Assembly: GCA_022705945.1 (NCBI GenBank) | Contig: JAKJDL010000005.1 | Span: 15,825 to 79,824, forward strand | Length of the DNA: 64,000 nucleotides | Direction of reading: 5' to 3' | DNA from: Candidatus Omnitrophota bacterium | Lineage (GTDB): Bacteria > Omnitrophota > Omnitrophia > Omnitrophales > Aquincolibacteriaceae | Part shown: piece after piece, positions 2,557 to 49,742 of the stretch | How positions within the stretch are numbered: the first letter of the stretch is position 1 | Layout: each line of letters starts with the position of its first letter | Position numbers and translations under genes: made by a program | Notes under the pieces: generated by a model | The model's input: only the letters and a program-made list of their open reading frames with translations | The model's database searches: none | What the model was told of the DNA's origin: nothing

Positions 2557-3667
2557 TCATATCAAGAATGCCAAACGGATCGTTGTCAAAATCGGGACCA
2601 GTATTCTGAGGACCCCCTCTGAAAGTTTTTCTCACAAGGAACATTTAAGGATTTGTGACGAGATTTATTCTCTGTTGAGGATGAAGAAGCAGCCTGTTGT
2701 TGTGAGTTCGGGAGCGATCGCTCTCGGCATGAAGTCTACCGGTATTAAAAAGCGCCCCAAAGAAATGCCGGCGCTTCAGGCTTGCGCCGCGATCGGTCAG
2801 GGGAAATTGATCGGCGCTTATGAGAGTTATTTTTTAAAAAAAGGGATTCATACGGCCCAGGTGCTGTTGACGCGGGATGGATTGGAAAACCGCAAGAGGT
2901 TTCTTTGCTCCCGGGACGCCATGCAGAAGCTGCTTGAAATGAACGTTCTGCCGATCGTCAACGAAAACGATACCGTGGCCGTCGAAGAGATCGCTTTCGG
3001 GGACAATGATATCCTTTCCGTCCATGTGGCCCACTTGGTGGGGGCAGATCTTCTCATTAATCTTTCGGATGCAGAGGGTTTTCTTCTCAAAGACGGCACG
3101 AGAGTCCGCGAAGTAACATCAGAAGATGAAATCGATACCAAGCTTCTGATGCATCTTTCGGATACCAGGCGTGAGGAAACGGTCGGCGGGATGCGTGCGA
3201 AGCTTGTTGCCGCCCGTGTCGCCATGCGCCTCGGGATTCCTTTTATGATCGTCAATGGCCACAGGCCGAATATCCTGAAGGAGATTCTTGACGGGAGTGA
3301 TGTAGGCACTTTTTTTATACCTTCCAAAGAAAAGAAAGACCAGCGGCGTAAATGGATTGCCTTTTCGGCGGTGCGCAAAGGGATTCTGACCGTGGATGAG
3401 GGGGCATTTGATGCCTTGGCAAACCGGCATAAAAGTCTTTTGCCCGGCGGGATTTCCAAAGTTCAGGGGAATTTTGAAGAAGGAGAAGTCGTTGAATTGC
3501 AGACCGCGGGGGGAAGAGTTTTCGGGCGAGGGGTCGTAAAGTACAACAGCAAGGATCTCGCGCGTATCATGGGGAAACGCACTGACCGGATCCGGGAGCT
3601 TTTGGGCCGTGAATCCTCTTGTGAAATTATTCATCGAAATGATCTTGTGCTATGGAGCGCACGATAA
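2534..3667 (+). CDS. proB: Glutamate 5-kinase with C-terminal PUA domain
   Basis: 'RIVVKIGTSIL' amino-acid kinase N-terminus and a PUA domain at the C-terminus. proA lies immediately downstream. The true start may be the ATG at 2549 (MPSHIKNAKRIVVKIG). Confidence 0.9.
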   Translation: MKVIGMPSHIKNAKRIVVKIGTSILRTPSESFSHKEHLRICDEIYSLLRMKKQPVVVSSGAIALGMKSTGIKKRPKEMPALQACAAIGQGKLIGAYESYFLKKGIHTAQVLLTRDGLENRKRFLCSRDAMQKLLEMNVLPIVNENDTVAVEEIAFGDNDILSVHVAHLVGADLLINLSDAEGFLLKDGTRVREVTSEDEIDTKLLMHLSDTRREETVGGMRAKLVAARVAMRLGIPFMIVNGHRPNILKEILDGSDVGTFFIPSKEKKDQRRKWIAFSAVRKGILTVDEGAFDALANRHKSLLPGGISKVQGNFEEGEVVELQTAGGRVFGRGVVKYNSKDLARIMGKRTDRIRELLGRESSCEIIHRNDLVLWSAR

Positions 3668-44164: not shown

Positions 44165-44878
44165 ATGGGCGAGATCGAAAAGCTGAAATCGTTTGTCGAT
44201 AGCTTCCAGTATCGCGAAAAATATCTTGCCGCGATCGATCCGAAAAACGGCCGCTATCCTTTCATAACCATCTCCCGTGATACAGGCGCCGGAGGGCATA
44301 ATCTTGCCGACGCGGTTATGGCGCTGATCGATCAGGAAAAGAAAGATCCTCTTTTTCAGGACTGGCAGATTTGCGACCAGGAGATTTGTTCCAGACTCGC
44401 CCGGGATTCCAGGCTCAAGGTTTCGAGGGAGTCCCTCATCGTGACCGAGTATCGTTCGGCCACGGAAGATGTGCTGAGCCAGCTTTTGACGGGGGAGGCC
44501 TCGCAGGAAAAAATCGCTCGTAGAATGTTTGCGATGATGCGCGATCTTGCCGTTTACGGGAAATCAATCATCATCGGCCGGGGGGCCACGTGTCTTACCC
44601 GCAATCTGTCGTATGGTATTCATATCCGGCTTGTTGCCTCGCTTCCCTCCCGTATTTCGCTTATGATGAAGGCTCACGGGAAGGATGAGAAGTGGGCCCG
44701 CGAAAAGATCCGCGAACAGGATCGCGCCAAAGCGGCGTTCGTGAAAAACTTTTTTCATAAGGATATCCACGATCCGCTTTTGTATGACGCGATCTGGAAT
44801 ACGGACAGGATCGGGATTGACGAGATTGCTCGCATTCTTGTGAGCTGGATCAAGAACAAGGCGGCTCTCCCGAAGTAG
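44165..44878 (+). CDS. Cytidylate-kinase-like family protein (P-loop NTPase fold, degenerate Walker A)
   Basis: 'FITISRDTGAGGHNLADAV' resembles the cytidylate kinase-like family N-terminus. 237 aa. Confidence 0.5.
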   Translation: MGEIEKLKSFVDSFQYREKYLAAIDPKNGRYPFITISRDTGAGGHNLADAVMALIDQEKKDPLFQDWQICDQEICSRLARDSRLKVSRESLIVTEYRSATEDVLSQLLTGEASQEKIARRMFAMMRDLAVYGKSIIIGRGATCLTRNLSYGIHIRLVASLPSRISLMMKAHGKDEKWAREKIREQDRAKAAFVKNFFHKDIHDPLLYDAIWNTDRIGIDEIARILVSWIKNKAALPK

Positions 44879-45027
44879 CAGATTCTTTCACGTGTTTTTA
44901 TTTACGAATCCGTTCCTGATCCCCGTAAGGCCCGGGCCGCGCGATAAAAATAAATCCAAAATCACGATTGACACAAGGTAAATGTCTGATAGTTTATCCA
45001 CCACCTGTTGTGGGACGGCAAATCTCA

Positions 45028-45043
45028 ACTACAATATATTGGC
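45028..45043 (+). promoter_or_regulatory. Candidate NrdR box upstream of nrdD
   Basis: ACTACAATATATTGGC contains the perfect palindrome CAATATATTG, resembling the NrdR operator consensus (acaCwAtATaTwGtgt). About 35 nt upstream of the nrdD start. Confidence 0.35.
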
Positions 45044-45079
45044 TTTTTGCCGATATGAAAGGATAAAGGGGGAGTGAAC

Positions 45080-47113
45080 ATGTCTGAGCGGTTCCAGTCC
45101 AGAAAGATCACCAATATTCGAAAGCGCGACGGTTCCGTGATGCCCTTTGACGGGGTAAAGATCTATAACGCCATCGTTAAAGCGGGGCAGGCAACCGGCG
45201 ATTATGACGGCAGCGAGGCACAGCTCCTGACGCTGGCCGTGATCAAGGTTATCGATAACCGTTACGACCGTGGATTCCTGGATATCGAAGCAATCCAGGA
45301 TATCGTCGAACAGGTCCTGATTACTTCCAACTATCTTAAGACCGCCCGCGCGTATATCGTCTACCGCGAACAGCATAAAAAACTGCGCAGTGACAAAAAA
45401 ACGGTCGTTGACGTTGTCTCCTCGGTCAATGAATACCTCTACAAACAGGACTGGCGGGTGAACGCGAACGCCAATCAGGGATATTCGCTTGGCGGCATGA
45501 TTCTCAATATTTCGGGCAAGGTCATCGCGAATTACTGGCTCTCTCATGTTTATCCCGAAGAGGTCGCGAACGCGCACCGGCACGGCGACATTCATATTCA
45601 CGATCTCGATATGCTCTCGGGATACTGCGCCGGATGGTCCCTGAGGACATTGCTTCGCGAAGGTTTTAACGGTGTTCCCGACAAGGTCGAATCAGCCCCG
45701 CCGAAGCACCTGAGTTCCGCGGTCGGGCAGATGGTTAACTTCCTCGGCACCCTCCAGAACGAATGGGCGGGAGCGCAGGCGTTCTCGTCGTTTGACACTT
45801 ACCTCGCGCCTTATATCCGCAAGGACAAGCTTCCTTACGAAAAGGTGAAGCAGAGCATTCAGGAATTTATTTACAACCTGAACGTTCCGTCGCGCTGGGG
45901 CACCCAGACGCCGTTCACGAACGTGACCTTTGATTGGATTTGCCCGGAGGATTTGCGCGCGGAACATCCGATAGTAGGCGGTCAGGAGATGGAGTTCACC
46001 TATGGCGATCTTGGCGAAGAAATGGCCATGATCAACAAGGCTTATATCGAGGTGATGATGAAAGGCGACGCGAAGGGGAGGGTTTTCACGTTCCCGATCC
46101 CGACCTACAACATTACCCCGGATTTTGACTGGGATCATCCGAACTGCGAACCTCTTTTCGAGATGACCGCGAAATACGGGCTTCCGTATTTCCAGAACTT
46201 CCTCAATTCCGATCTCAAACCGAACCAGATCCGCTCGATGTGTTGCCGGCTGCAACTTGATCTCCGAGAGCTCCTCAAGCGCGGTAACGGCCTCTTTGGC
46301 TCGGCCGAACAGACGGGATCACTTGGGGTCGTAACTCTCAATTGCGCGCGTATCGGTTATCTCGCGAAAGGGGATGAGAGCGCTTTTTATAACCGGGTTG
46401 ACCATCTTCTTCATCTCGCGAAGACGAGCCTTGAGCTGAAGAGGAAGATCATCCAGAGACATATTGATCAGGGGCTTTTCCCTTACACGAGGCGTTATCT
46501 TGGAACGCTTCGGAACCATTTTTCAACGATCGGCGTGAACGGGATCAATGAATGTATCCGGAACTTCACAAACGACAAAGAGAACATCACGACCGAGGAA
46601 GGGTTTAAATTCGCGCTCAAGCTCCTTGATCATATCCGGATGAGAATGACCGAGTTCCAAACGGAGACCGGTCATCTTTATAATCTTGAAGCGACGCCTG
46701 CCGAGGGTGCGACCTACCGTTTTGCCAAGGAGGACATCAGGCGGTTCCCGGACGTTCTTCACGCGGGAACGGATGAGCGCCCGTATTACACGAACTCCTC
46801 CCAGCTCCCGGTGACCTTCACGGATGATCCTTTTGAGGCCCTGGAACGCCAGGAAGAGCTCCAGCGCCGTTACACCGGCGGGACCGTGCTGCATCTCTAT
46901 ATGGGAGAACGTGTTTCGTCGTCCGCGGCGTGCAAGGAGCTTGTGAGACGCGCTTTGGCCGGCTACAGGATTCCTTATATCACGGTCACTCCGACATTTT
47001 CGATCTGTCCGAAGCACGCGTATCTTCCCGGAGAACACGAGTTCTGTCCAAAGTGCGATGAAGAGCTTATTCGTGAAAAAATGCTCGCGTCGCAGACCCC
47101 GGCAGAATCCTGA
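45080..47113 (+). CDS. nrdD: Anaerobic ribonucleoside-triphosphate reductase (class III), large polypeptide ending after the Zn-ribbon and lacking the glycyl-radical loop
   Basis: N-terminal ATP cone ('KRDGSVMPFDGVKIYNAIVKAG') and NrdD core. C-terminal Zn-ribbon 'CPKH...CPKCDE', then a TGA stop. Start taken at ATG 45080 (RBS GGGGGAG). Confidence 0.85.
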   Translation: MSERFQSRKITNIRKRDGSVMPFDGVKIYNAIVKAGQATGDYDGSEAQLLTLAVIKVIDNRYDRGFLDIEAIQDIVEQVLITSNYLKTARAYIVYREQHKKLRSDKKTVVDVVSSVNEYLYKQDWRVNANANQGYSLGGMILNISGKVIANYWLSHVYPEEVANAHRHGDIHIHDLDMLSGYCAGWSLRTLLREGFNGVPDKVESAPPKHLSSAVGQMVNFLGTLQNEWAGAQAFSSFDTYLAPYIRKDKLPYEKVKQSIQEFIYNLNVPSRWGTQTPFTNVTFDWICPEDLRAEHPIVGGQEMEFTYGDLGEEMAMINKAYIEVMMKGDAKGRVFTFPIPTYNITPDFDWDHPNCEPLFEMTAKYGLPYFQNFLNSDLKPNQIRSMCCRLQLDLRELLKRGNGLFGSAEQTGSLGVVTLNCARIGYLAKGDESAFYNRVDHLLHLAKTSLELKRKIIQRHIDQGLFPYTRRYLGTLRNHFSTIGVNGINECIRNFTNDKENITTEEGFKFALKLLDHIRMRMTEFQTETGHLYNLEATPAEGATYRFAKEDIRRFPDVLHAGTDERPYYTNSSQLPVTFTDDPFEALERQEELQRRYTGGTVLHLYMGERVSSSAACKELVRRALAGYRIPYITVTPTFSICPKHAYLPGEHEFCPKCDEELIREKMLASQTPAES

Positions 47114-47239
47114 ACCGGTTTATTCGGGAGGACAGTTTGACATACAAGAAATATCAGGTGAACAAAGCCCGTCGAGCCGTTTGAAGCTCTCACGGAAAGG
47201 TGAACGTCGAAAAACCCGGACCGGGAAGGAGGAAGTATC

Positions 47240-47434
47240 ATGACGTTAGCGGAAGCGAAAGCGAAAGCGAAAGAAAAGATTATTCTCAAGGATGAAGAGA
47301 GGACCCGTTGCGAAGTCTGGACGCGCGTGATGGGTTATCATCGTCCCGTCGCGGGATTCAATGTGGGGAAAAAAGGCGAGTTTTATGAAAGGAAATACTT
47401 CAAGGAAGCCGCGTGCGACTGCGGAGCCAGGTGA
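47240..47434 (+). CDS. Stand-alone 64-aa NrdD C-terminal glycyl-radical domain protein
   Basis: 'TRVMGYHRPVAGFNVGKKGEFYERKYF' matches the NrdD glycyl radical motif (RVCGY...FNxGKxxE...R). Strong own RBS GGAAGGAGG 6 nt upstream. Separated from nrdD by 126 nt that contain several stops in all continuing frames. Confidence 0.7.
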   Translation: MTLAEAKAKAKEKIILKDEERTRCEVWTRVMGYHRPVAGFNVGKKGEFYERKYFKEAACDCGAR

Positions 47435-48158
47435 TCATCCGGAGCTTTGTGCCGTCCTTTCTGAAATACCTGTCGGTGGAATAACGCCGTTTACGACGAT
47501 AGACTTCCCCGGCCGTCTGGCCGGGGTTTTCTATCTCCAGGGCTGTGAGTGGCGGTGCCGCTACTGTTATAACTCCGAGTTCTGGAAGTTTGTCCCTGAT
47601 GCGACTTGTGTCTCTCCCGAAAAGATCCCGCATTTCCTCGAGTCCCGCCGCGGGAAACTGGACGGGATCGTTTTCTCCGGAGGAGAGCCGACCGCTCACC
47701 CCTCTCTCAAGAAATGGATCCGGGCGGTGCGTTCGCTCGGCTATCAGGTCGCGCTTCATACGAATGGCATGTATCCCGATCGTCTGGGAGAGGTTTTGCC
47801 TCTCTGTGACTGGGTCGGAATCGATATCAAGGCCCCGTTTGATCAATATGCCGATGTGACGATGCGTGAGGGGAGCGGGGCAGCAGCGAAGGCCGGTCTG
47901 CGGCGGATTCTTTCAAGTCATGTTCCTTATGAATGCCGCACGACCGTGCATCCGGATTTGTTGAAAAATGAAAGCCTGCTTCAGCTTGCCGGCGAGCTTC
48001 ATGATCTCGGGGTCAGAGAGTTTCACGTCCAGAGATTTCGACGGGAGGGATGTCCCGATCCGGAGCTTTGCGAAAGCAGTCGGCTCGGAGCCGTCATTTC
48101 GCCGGACCTGCAAGACCGGCTTAGAGCCATTTTCCCGAAATTGCAGGTACGCGGATAG
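47385..48158 (+). CDS. nrdG: Anaerobic ribonucleotide reductase activating protein (radical SAM)
   Basis: 'ITPFTTIDFPGRLAGVFYLQGCEWRCRYCYN' (CxxxCxxC). ORF open from 47361 (alternative ATG). Overlaps the glycyl-radical mini-gene in another frame. Confidence 0.85.
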   Translation: MKGNTSRKPRATAEPGDHPELCAVLSEIPVGGITPFTTIDFPGRLAGVFYLQGCEWRCRYCYNSEFWKFVPDATCVSPEKIPHFLESRRGKLDGIVFSGGEPTAHPSLKKWIRAVRSLGYQVALHTNGMYPDRLGEVLPLCDWVGIDIKAPFDQYADVTMREGSGAAAKAGLRRILSSHVPYECRTTVHPDLLKNESLLQLAGELHDLGVREFHVQRFRREGCPDPELCESSRLGAVISPDLQDRLRAIFPKLQVRG

Positions 48159-48407
48159 CCCTGGTGTGATACGCGAAGTTTTGAAGAATATATCCTCTTG
48201 TCGTGACGGTTTTTGCTTGCCGCTCGCCCACGCCTGCGATCCTCGCGCAGAATCTTGAGAAGTGAAATTCCGGTCATTCGGGAATGCGCATCGTTCGGGA
48301 TGACCGTGTTTTTGGCATCCCGCCAGAAAATCGGCAAGGCAAGAGTCGGGGTTCTGCCGTTTTTTTTGGGAACATGAGAAAGAATGTTTTAACAAGTTGA
48401 GGATTGG

Positions 48408-49742
48408 ATGTCGCGTTTAGTCAGGGATAAAGTGTTTTTGACGGTTTTTCGTATGGCGGTTCCGATGCTCGCCGGGACCTTCGCCATGAATATGTATAAC
48501 ATGGTCGATACGTGGTTTGTTTCCCGGTTGGGGACCCAGGCGCTGGCGGCGATGTCGTTTACTTTCCCGGTGGTGATGTTCGTCAGTTTTGTGATGCGGG
48601 GAGTGGGGACCGGCGCGATGACGGTGGTCGCCCACGCGCTGGGAAGACAGAAACATCAAGCCGCGGCGAGGATTACGACGCACGCCATTTTTCTGGCGTC
48701 GGGGATTTCGCTCATCCTGACGGGGGCCGGCCTGTTGACCTTTGAACCGCTGTTTCTCCGGCTGGGCGCTTCCGGGGAGGTGCTTGACCTGGCCCGGCAA
48801 TACATGACGATTTGGTATTGGGGGCTCATTTTCCGAGTTCTGCACATCATGCTGGCGGACATTATTATCGGGACAGGGGACAGCAGGACGGTGAGTTTTT
48901 TGATGGTCGGAGGGACGCTTCTGAATTGCGTGCTCGACCCGGTGATGATTTTTGGCTGGGGGTTTTTCCCGAGGATGGGGATCCGGGGAGCCGCGCTGGC
49001 GACGGTGATCGCCGAATTGTTTGTGATGGCGGCGGCGTATTATTTTGTCCACCGGAAATATCATTTAATCTCTTTCGCGGCTTACTCCCGGCGGCGAATG
49101 ATGGCATCCTGGTACAGGATTCTACAGATCGGATCGTCGGCGATGGTAAGCTCCGTCCTGACCCCGGTATCGGCCGCGATTGTAATCAGGATCGTCGCCG
49201 GTTTCGGACGGTCGGCCGTGGCCGCGGTCGGGGTCGCGGCCCGGATTGAAATGTTCGCATTTATGATTCCGATGACGGTCGGGATGTCCCTCGTCCCGTT
49301 TGTCGCGCAAAATTACGGGGCGAAACGTTTTGACCGGATCCGGACGGTGCGGAGGGGAGCGTTCATTTTCGCGCTCGCGTTCGGATTTGTGAGCGCCGGG
49401 ATTCTTCTGCTTATCGCGCGGCCCCTCGGACGGCTGTTTTCTTCGGATCCCGCCGTGGTGGATGTCCTGGTGCGTTATATTTACATCACCTGCTTCGGAT
49501 ACGGCTTCCTGGAAGTACACCGGTACGCGACGTTTTGCATGACCGGCATTCACCGGCCGATGATGGCCACCACCCTGAATGCCATTCGCGTTTTGGTCCT
49601 GATGATTCCGATGGCGTTTTTGGGGGCGAAATGGTTCGGCCTCTACGGAGTTTTCTGGGGGCGGTTGTTGACCGATCTCCTTGCGGCCGGAATCGGGATC
49701 ATCTGGTCGGGAAAAATTCTCAAAAAAATGATCCCCGAGTGA
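48408..49742 (+). CDS. MATE family efflux transporter
   Basis: 12-TM protein with MATE/NorM-DinF family periodicity. 444 aa. Confidence 0.8.
   Translation: MSRLVRDKVFLTVFRMAVPMLAGTFAMNMYNMVDTWFVSRLGTQALAAMSFTFPVVMFVSFVMRGVGTGAMTVVAHALGRQKHQAAARITTHAIFLASGISLILTGAGLLTFEPLFLRLGASGEVLDLARQYMTIWYWGLIFRVLHIMLADIIIGTGDSRTVSFLMVGGTLLNCVLDPVMIFGWGFFPRMGIRGAALATVIAELFVMAAAYYFVHRKYHLISFAAYSRRRMMASWYRILQIGSSAMVSSVLTPVSAAIVIRIVAGFGRSAVAAVGVAARIEMFAFMIPMTVGMSLVPFVAQNYGAKRFDRIRTVRRGAFIFALAFGFVSAGILLLIARPLGRLFSSDPAVVDVLVRYIYITCFGYGFLEVHRYATFCMTGIHRPMMATTLNAIRVLVLMIPMAFLGAKWFGLYGVFWGRLLTDLLAAGIGIIWSGKILKKMIPE

Follow-up and report, generated by a model that had tools for sequence, protein, structure and literature searches.

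A predicted two-polypeptide class III ribonucleotide reductase in an Omnitrophota bacterium, with the radical glycine encoded on a separate 64-residue subunit

Class III ribonucleotide reductases (RNRs) are known as single-chain NrdD proteins with a NrdG activase from phage T4, E. coli, T. maritima, P. copri and S. thermophilus, and all of the enzymes that have been solved or studied biochemically keep the radical glycine loop on the same chain as the rest of NrdD. In this study, we analyzed a 64,000-nucleotide (nt) stretch of DNA from a Candidatus Omnitrophota bacterium (contig JAKJDL010000005.1, positions 15,825 to 79,824; here called the window) in which the loop is the product of a separate gene, nrdD-mini, that follows a loopless nrdD-large. 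We read the locus as a functional class III RNR of two polypeptides produced from one nrdD-large/nrdD-mini/nrdG cluster that is expressed as a single operon, and we put the probability of this reading at roughly 0.85. By all sequence and fold criteria but one, the locus belongs among the class III RNRs; the exception is the position of the glycine loop off the catalytic chain.

The likeness to the single-chain enzymes is extensive. The two pieces fall in the same Pfam and NCBIfam families and contain an ATP-cone, a barrel and a zinc ribbon followed by an RVxGY loop; a radical-SAM activase gene is adjacent, and a joint structural model superposes on the solved structures 9d3x, 8p23, 4u3e and 1hk8. 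The difference is that the split cuts inside the so-called glycyl radical domain, after the zinc ribbon, and leaves the loop on its own gene product.

In form, the small protein recalls GrcA (YfiD), the spare part of pyruvate formate-lyase (PFL). grcA is a separate stress-regulated gene, whereas nrdD-mini lies between nrdD and nrdG. GrcA and the phage T4 protein Y06I are, like the mini-protein, small stand-alone proteins that copy the strand, Gly loop and helix of their parent's C terminus and complete a large protein that lacks this piece (PMC8683613). The mini-protein can be compared in these elements with the structured half of YfiD, described in PMC8683613 as residues 61-127. GrcA is 127 residues long with a disordered N-terminal half and has a PFL-type glycine-radical domain, whereas the mini-protein has about 45-65 residues and belongs to PF13597 NRDD, so that by Pfam it is not a GrcA homologue. 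GrcA also coexists with a complete PFL and acts after damage and trimming, whereas the large subunit described here never has a loop. By analogy, the two-piece NrdD might work like a truncated PFL plus GrcA. The original prediction had drawn the same parallel with GrcA, which is apt in form and inexact in substance: the large subunit has no loop of its own, and the mini-protein is not a spare.

RNR chains divided over two polypeptides have precedents in other classes. Friedrich and colleagues reportedly described in 2007 a class I nrdA of Aeromonas phage Aeh1 that is in pieces, split by the homing endonuclease gene mobE. As predicted for our locus, a functional RNR large subunit is encoded as two polypeptides. 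The Aeh1 case differs in being class I, in resulting from insertion of a mobile endonuclease gene and in being confined to one phage lineage; the spacer studied here is devoid of genes, and our split is both old and widely distributed. The Pseudomonas aeruginosa class II enzyme NrdJa/NrdJb (Crona et al. 2015, cited in PMC9669993) likewise spreads an RNR chain over two consecutive genes, with a C-terminal module on the second. It is B12-dependent and has no glycyl radical, and, as described in PMC9669993, its zinc finger is on the second piece instead of the first.

Organization of the split nrdD locus

Genes on the (+) strand are ordered cytidylate-kinase-like gene, nrdD-large, nrdD-mini, nrdG and a MATE transporter gene. 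The elements of the nrd cluster are as follows.

45080..47113, + strand: nrdD-large, class III RNR catalytic subunit (Pfam NRDD 5e-179, ATP-cone 1e-21, NF006126 1133 bits)
45113..45382, + strand: ATP-cone, the allosteric activity domain, inside nrdD-large (PF03477, residues 14-103 in 679-aa numbering)
47006..47062, + strand: zinc-ribbon motif C-P-K-H ... C-P-K-C, last conserved element of the large subunit (from the translation; aligns to C..H...CPVC of T. maritima NrdD)
47114..47239, + strand: intergenic spacer of exactly 126 nt between the nrdD-large stop and the mini-gene ATG
47224-47232, + strand: Shine-Dalgarno sequence GGAAGGAGG of the mini-gene, 7 nt 5' of the ATG at 47240, of AAGGAGG type
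47240..47434, + strand: nrdD-mini, glycyl-radical subunit of 64 aa (NRDD profile positions 532-562 of 562, E = 2.7e-7)
47255..47272, + strand: hexamer repeat (GCGAAA)x3, encoding AKAKAK in the variable N terminus of the mini-protein (from the sequence and comparison with loci L001 and L002)
47385..48158, + strand: nrdG, radical-SAM activase of NrdG2 type (TIGR02495 5e-52, Radical_SAM, Fer4_12)

The large subunit has 677 residues counted from the ATG at 45080, a length that gene callers also give in the independent contig L090; an alternative GTG start at 45074 yields the 679-aa numbering. It contains the ATP-cone, the alpha/beta barrel and the zinc ribbon and lacks the glycyl-radical loop. Its C terminus reads ...FCPKCDEELIREKMLASQTPAES before the TGA stop codon (47111-47113), and the end of the open reading frame (ORF), also written ...ICPKHAYLPGEHEFCPKCDEELIREKMLASQTPAES, comes immediately past the ribbon. 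The mini-protein, with the translation MTLAEAKAKAKEKIILKDEERTRCEVWTRVMGYHRPVAGFNVGKKGEFYERKYFKEAACDCGAR, has the conserved core LKDEERTRCEVWTRVMGYHRPVAGFNVGKKGEFYERKYFKE, in which the glycine loop is RVMGYHRPV and G32 (codon 47333-47335) is the radical glycine; the last residues of the C-terminal tail are C-D-C-G-A-R. The mini-gene overlaps nrdG by 50 nt if nrdG starts at 47385, as gene callers have it in contigs L089 and L092, or by 74 nt from an alternative ATG at 47361. This layout bears out the original prediction, which had nrdD ending in TGA right after its ribbon, the glycine loop on its own 64-aa ORF 126 nt downstream with a strong ribosome-binding site (RBS), and that ORF running into the start of nrdG.

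Profile matches divide at the same place. The large ORF covers positions 2-529 of the 562 in the NRDD profile and the mini ORF continues with 532-562, contiguously and with no overlap, and of the 684 positions of NF006126 the large ORF matches 3-658 and the mini ORF 649-683. The large subunit passes the NrdD family cutoffs by itself, with 1133 bits for NF006126 (cutoff 548) and 486 bits for TIGR02487 (cutoff 326), and nrdG passes that of TIGR02495 NrdG2 (176 bits versus 131). Scans of the mini-protein returned only PF13597 NRDD among Pfam families and only NrdD models in NCBIfam. The combination of zinc ribbon and RVxGY loop on one polypeptide, a trait of NrdD, is absent, as the loop sits on a separate ORF. 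A double-cysteine motif in the large subunit, RSMCCRLQL, resembles the double-cysteine finger-loop type described in PMC9669993 and lies outside the local alignments that we obtained. We found no second copy of the glycine loop in the 64-kb window. Judged from the sequence, the mini-protein would be the obligate and sole radical site of the enzyme, not a spare.

The point of the split could be placed by alignment with solved enzymes. A Protein Data Bank (PDB) sequence search using the C-terminal region with its natural linker gave no match, but a linker-deleted construct did, and linker-deleted large plus mini aligns colinearly with residues 351-645 of the 651 in T. maritima NrdD and with P. 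copri NrdD. In the T. maritima alignment, the break falls between CPVCGK and AKVDEYMRIVGY (...CPVCGK--AKVDEYMRIVGYLVPV...). This places the split past the zinc ribbon and ahead of the strand that enters the glycine loop, and the ribbon stays on the large subunit. Close relatives in which the two parts are fused have a linker of about 10-35 residues at this point, a variation in length that marks it as a variable segment. The break is in a variable surface linker between the zinc ribbon and the glycine-loop strand.

Conservation and distribution of the split

An apparent split of this kind could arise from a sequencing or assembly error, or from decay of a continuous nrdD into a frameshifted pseudogene. 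The original prediction had named read evidence for an assembly error as its refutation and had stated that the gap contains stops in every frame. The latter is correct for the frame shared by nrdD-large and the mini ORF, in which four stops intervene, and incorrect for the +1 frame, which is open from 47058 to 47243 across the whole spacer (a 61-aa ORF). Two indels could in principle give one ORF; with +1 open and frame 0 stopped four times, a continuous protein would require two compensating frameshifts. Against this, the DNA from 47050 to 47300 is identical in four independently assembled contigs (two NCBI metagenome-assembled genomes and two Logan run assemblies), the exact 64-aa mini-protein occurs on ten contigs, and the split is also present in complete genomes of cultured bacteria. 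Since the DNA is identical in the four assemblies and the split is kept in 77 of 79 related loci, we exclude a frameshift artefact. The RBS of the mini-gene and the strong purifying selection acting on it are further arguments, and we give artefact or decay practically no credence.

The related loci that form the basis of this comparison number 80, taken from one-genome-per-species contigs at 70-92% identity, and 79 of them were informative. Represented among them are Omnitrophota, alpha-, beta- and gamma-Proteobacteria, Coriobacteriia, Fibrobacterota, Planctomycetia and Myxococcales, and calls of split or fused were settled by tblastn and inspection by eye. Only L027 and L059 are fused. In the 77 split loci, the mini-gene is in relative frame 0, 1 or 2, and its spacing ranges from a 65-nt overlap (-65) to a gap of +431 nt; nearly all of these loci have an ATG with a GGAG-type motif before it. 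In 80 of 84 loci, nrdG comes directly 3' of the mini-gene, in most cases with an overlap, and the median extrapolated spacing is -48 nt. The split had been taken as a peculiarity of this window; instead, the architecture is very widespread and occurs in several phyla.

The same comparison bears on the possibility that a single chain is made after all, by stop readthrough, ribosomal bypass, a small intron or protein trans-splicing. In the window, the large and mini ORFs do share a frame, which would suit such a mechanism. However, four in-frame stops separate them, and in relatives the mini-gene occurs in all three frames, overlapping or as far as 431 nt away. The variable frame and spacing, together with the mini-gene's own RBS and ATG in relatives, exclude readthrough, frameshifting and bypassing as a general mechanism, and likewise an intron or intein, in line with the original prediction's view that neither simple readthrough nor an intron or intein was involved. 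Pfam scans of the two ORFs revealed no intein domain. Conservation of the spacer is lacking already in the closest relatives: in L001 and L002, whose large subunits are 91-92% identical to that of the window, an ATGA stop/start overlap takes its place, and about 105 nt of it (roughly 47092-47196), an insertion specific to the window's lineage, are absent. The hexamer repeat of L001 and L002 is shorter by 12 nt (two GCGAAA units), and the repeat expansion in the window is therefore recent. Within the spacer, an Rfam search found no family at threshold, the predicted fold is no more stable than those of shuffled controls (z = +1.2), and consensus sites for a promoter or a terminator are absent; on these grounds we rejected an RNA element in the spacer. 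Recoding or splicing into one chain is very improbable.

Codon patterns over the 84 loci indicate that the mini-gene is under strong purifying selection. In the 13-residue core CEVWTRVMGYHRP, 513 synonymous codon differences stand against 17 amino-acid changes, and over a 41-codon core the nucleotide differences at codon positions 1, 2 and 3 number 807, 598 and 2022. Among 120 stand-alone mini homologues, the start residue is Met in 118, the radical glycine lies 22-34 residues from the N terminus and about 29-35 from the C terminus, and about 25 positions around the glycine are invariant or nearly so, with an invariant core.

One position separates the two forms of the protein. Cys24 (codon 47309-47311), eight residues before the glycine, is invariant in 120/120 stand-alone and 4/4 divergent mini-proteins. 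In 47 fused representatives, the same position is T in 20, C in 16, A in 5 or another residue, and in fused L059 the cysteine is three residues past CPKC, close to the zinc ribbon. This invariance hints at a constraint that is specific to the split form, in sequences that are not phylogenetically independent, and Cys24 may serve as an inter-subunit latch. Cysteines also recur in the tails. All Omnitrophota mini-proteins end in C-x-C (or CCC), as does the window's (...AACDCGAR, 47414-47434), and in some other lineages the C terminus of the large subunit ends in CC or CxC (...HADCSC, ...STCCD, ...ACCSQH). Such tails resemble the redox-shuttle tails of class I and II RNRs. Because a cysteine pair is present in the tails of just 18 of 80 loci, we rejected a general thiol shuttle.

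A broader survey extends the split well beyond these loci, to bacterial genomes that number in the thousands. Clustering at 90% identity gave 2950 mini-protein clusters of the window's type and 512 of a second type, CEVYSRVVGY, counts that show abundance and not proportion, as the search appears to return only proteins near the query length. The second type occurs in Thermodesulfobacterium, Thermosulfurimonas marina, Thermodesulfatator, Caldimicrobium, Hydrothermota and a Pacearchaeota archaeon. No phage homologues of the mini-protein were found at E <= 1e-3. To obtain proportions without this bias, we examined the 150 best 50%-identity cluster representatives for the large subunit, 119 of which have a readable C terminus. 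The Gly loop is missing in 72 of the 119, which end 16-60 residues past the first zinc cysteine; the remaining 47 are fused, with the glycine constantly 27-29 residues past that cysteine. Five divergent Gly-less representatives were traced to their contigs, and P0257, P0270 and P0265 have an NRDD gene of 43-63 aa directly 3'. A Parachlamydiales locus reached via the mini-protein P0042 has the same large/mini arrangement, so that a mini-gene is immediately downstream in 4/6 of the divergent loci sampled overall.

Many of the NrdD representatives (P0241-P0390; for example L093 567-3323 and L095 144-3188) are 1000-1800 aa long and match the query in 2-5 separate stretches. Their precomputed Pfam matches include Intein_splicing and LAGLIDADG, and the breaks recur near query residues ~276-279, ~384-417 and ~545-605. 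Inteins are thus very common in this NrdD subfamily.

Carriers of the split include well-studied bacteria. It is found on plasmid pHG1 of Cupriavidus necator H16 (genes of 676, 66 and 239 aa, with E6A55_RS33455 as the mini-gene), in C. metallidurans CH34, in Paracoccus denitrificans, Bradyrhizobium spp. and Ralstonia solanacearum, and on 133 Ralstonia megaplasmids. RefSeq labels the large gene "ribonucleoside triphosphate reductase" and the small gene "nrdD, anaerobic ribonucleoside-triphosphate reductase." The pHG1 case offers indirect functional support, its nrdDG being split: according to PMC2864759, citing Siedow 1999, the class III RNR (nrdDG) of pHG1 is indispensable if denitrification is to be complete in C. 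necator H16, and a pHG1-free mutant grows very poorly on nitrate.

A predicted two-piece enzyme and the reasons for its division

How the two pieces might fit together was modeled with AlphaFold2. The input was an artificial single chain in which the large and mini sequences were joined end to end, and the alignment combined homologues in fused form, large subunits without the Gly loop, C-terminal fragments of fused proteins and stand-alone mini-proteins. The joint model has a predicted local distance difference test score (pLDDT) of 92.2 and a predicted template modeling score (pTM) of 0.87. The mini core (residues 691-730; model number = mini residue + 679) has a pLDDT of 92-96 and is modeled as a strand (704-708), Gly 711, a second strand (713-715) and a helix (721-729). 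Single-sequence AlphaFold of the same construct gave a pLDDT of 36.8 and was unusable. The best Foldseek matches of the joint model are solved class III RNRs of the single-chain type (S. thermophilus 9d3x, P. copri 8p23, T. maritima 4u3e and T4 1hk8), with E around 1e-30; no split enzyme is among the solved class III RNR structures. In the model, the two pieces together reproduce the intact NrdD fold.

We propose a mechanism along the lines of the single-chain enzymes. ATP-cone, catalytic barrel and zinc ribbon would come from the 677-aa large subunit, and a beta-hairpin with the radical glycine G32 from the 64-aa mini-protein, which would be translated from its own RBS. This hairpin would dock in the large-subunit barrel where a single-chain NrdD has its C-terminal radical domain. 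NrdG would then abstract a hydrogen from Gly32, creating a glycyl radical on the mini-protein, and the radical, following the pattern of the other class III enzymes, would move on to the finger-loop cysteine. Physical association of the pieces and formation of the radical on the mini-protein are what we infer, as is any advantage of the split.

One such advantage could lie in oxygen tolerance. Glycyl radical enzymes, NrdD among them, are cut by oxygen at the radical glycine. In a split enzyme, backbone cleavage at this glycine would destroy only a cheap, separately made peptide of 7 kDa, and the large subunit could be recharged with a fresh mini-protein, possibly one that had been activated off-enzyme by NrdG. 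The split would then be maintained as a means of replacing the radical-bearing part. Many hosts are oxygen-exposed facultative anaerobes or denitrifiers (Cupriavidus, Ralstonia, Paracoccus, Bradyrhizobium, Thiobacillus and Chromatiaceae), and the overlap of the mini-gene with nrdG suggests production coupled to that of the activase. The mini-protein shares the strand, Gly loop and C-terminal helix of the structured half of YfiD (PMC8683613). The same source describes YfiD as rescuing only PFL that has been stripped of its own radical domain, which is the native state of the large subunit here.

A stand-alone copy of the mini-gene is also relevant to this idea. An orphan mini-gene of 69 aa (L081 3474-3683) is located on plasmid pALVIN01 of Allochromatium vinosum (record 77079-77288). 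It stands beside a CHAP-domain gene in a phage-like region with siphovirus Gp157, ssb and integrases (L086), and the annotation of the 50 kb examined includes neither a large nrdD nor an nrdG. This gene could be a true spare copy on a mobile element, although a single orphan is an anecdote. The interleaving of fused and split forms in the tree also speaks against an adaptive explanation of this kind, and we hold it tentatively, as possible rather than probable. A stronger version makes the mini-protein a diffusible and exchangeable radical carrier: NrdG would charge the free peptide, which would plug into the Gly-less barrel and be swapped after oxygen damage or loss of the radical. The peptide may be fastened to the zinc-ribbon region by the invariant Cys24 or by the C-x-C at its end, and copies on mobile elements such as the pALVIN01 orphan would be true spare parts. 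We consider the exchangeable carrier unlikely; if it is true, this would be the first case of a glycyl radical enzyme with a natively separate, consumable subunit as the bearer of its cofactor.

Several observations weigh against the two-polypeptide reading or against the oxygen-repair advantage that might go with it. Given an artificial single chain, AlphaFold may have reproduced the learned fold of fused NrdD. Two phage-like contigs, P0344 and P0360 (L093 and L094), encode a Gly-less NrdD and have no glycine-loop ORF within 2.5 kb on either side, so adjacency of the mini-gene is not universal; the tails of these NrdD proteins look coiled-coil (...EYEKKLK...). The split is found in strict anaerobes too (Thermodesulfobacterium, Thermosulfurimonas and Omnitrophota), among them thermophiles of the Thermodesulfobacteriota, which weakens the oxygen argument. 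At least one lineage (L027) has re-fused, fused L059 branches deep, and many close relatives are fused. Neutral, reversible fission explains the strict-anaerobe hosts, the nested position of L027 and the many fused relatives equally well.

Under neutral fission, a stop codon and a start codon would have arisen in a dispensable surface linker, the pieces would still assemble, and the state would drift in both directions without consequence. Linker length in the fused close relatives ranges between about 10 and 35 residues, and the tails and spacers of split loci vary freely. Fused L027 is nested among split forms, and with 72 split-type and 47 fused representatives, both states are viable. A purely neutral course is harder to reconcile with a split that has been held in 77 of 79 loci over several phyla with very few reversions, or with a cysteine that is present eight residues before the glycine in 124/124 mini-proteins and in only 16/47 fused representatives. 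We give neutral fission a little less than even odds.

Gene neighborhood, literature and implications

Directly 5' of nrdD lies one further gene, and the region between the two contains a TTGACA motif and two palindromes.

44165..44878, + strand: cytidylate-kinase-like gene (PF13189)

This gene holds the same position in an independent assembly with an identical locus (L090 1-639), and it may indicate a link to nucleotide metabolism. Between 44969 and 45045, upstream of nrdD, TTGACA is followed after 16 nt by TAGTTT and then by the imperfect palindromes CCACCACCTGTTGTGG and CTACAATATATTGG, whose centers are ~30 bp apart. The palindromes look like tandem NrdR boxes, yet none is within 3 mismatches of the NrdR consensus. 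A terminator-like site, consisting of a GC-rich hairpin and a T-rich run, lies at 47507-47526 inside the nrdG coding region. It is probably due to chance, as it is the only such site in 44800-48500, where 4.6 are expected in shuffled sequence.

We found no description of a split NrdD in the open-access literature, including reviews and phylogenies of RNRs and glycyl radical enzymes, and we put at roughly one in three the chance that it has been mentioned in other sources, such as Siedow 1999 or the curation notes of RNRdb. The gene appears to have been passed over in annotation. Where PMC2864759, the C. metallidurans genome paper, names NrdDG, it gives Rmet_5137 and Rmet_5139 and leaves out the intervening gene; the skipped number is presumably the mini-gene (L083, CH34 megaplasmid, 3027-3635). 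This listing indicates that published work has missed the middle gene, and genome papers list only "NrdD and NrdG." A recent comprehensive RNR phylogeny describes the glycyl radical domain of class III enzymes as C-terminal, and its sequences were length-filtered; large-scale phylogenies filtered in this way would not see a missing domain.

The two-polypeptide anaerobic RNR is apparently widespread and undescribed, not a quirk of this genome. Accounts of class III RNRs and of glycyl radical enzymes place the radical glycine on the catalytic chain, and 72 of the 119 representatives of this subfamily do not have it there. The carriers include genetically tractable denitrifiers and plant pathogens. 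If the pieces work as proposed, the split enzyme would provide a natural system for asking how an activase reaches a buried glycine loop, the substrate here being a free peptide, and a minimal peptide substrate for NrdG biochemistry. It would also allow repair to be tested against resynthesis of an oxygen-damaged anaerobic RNR.

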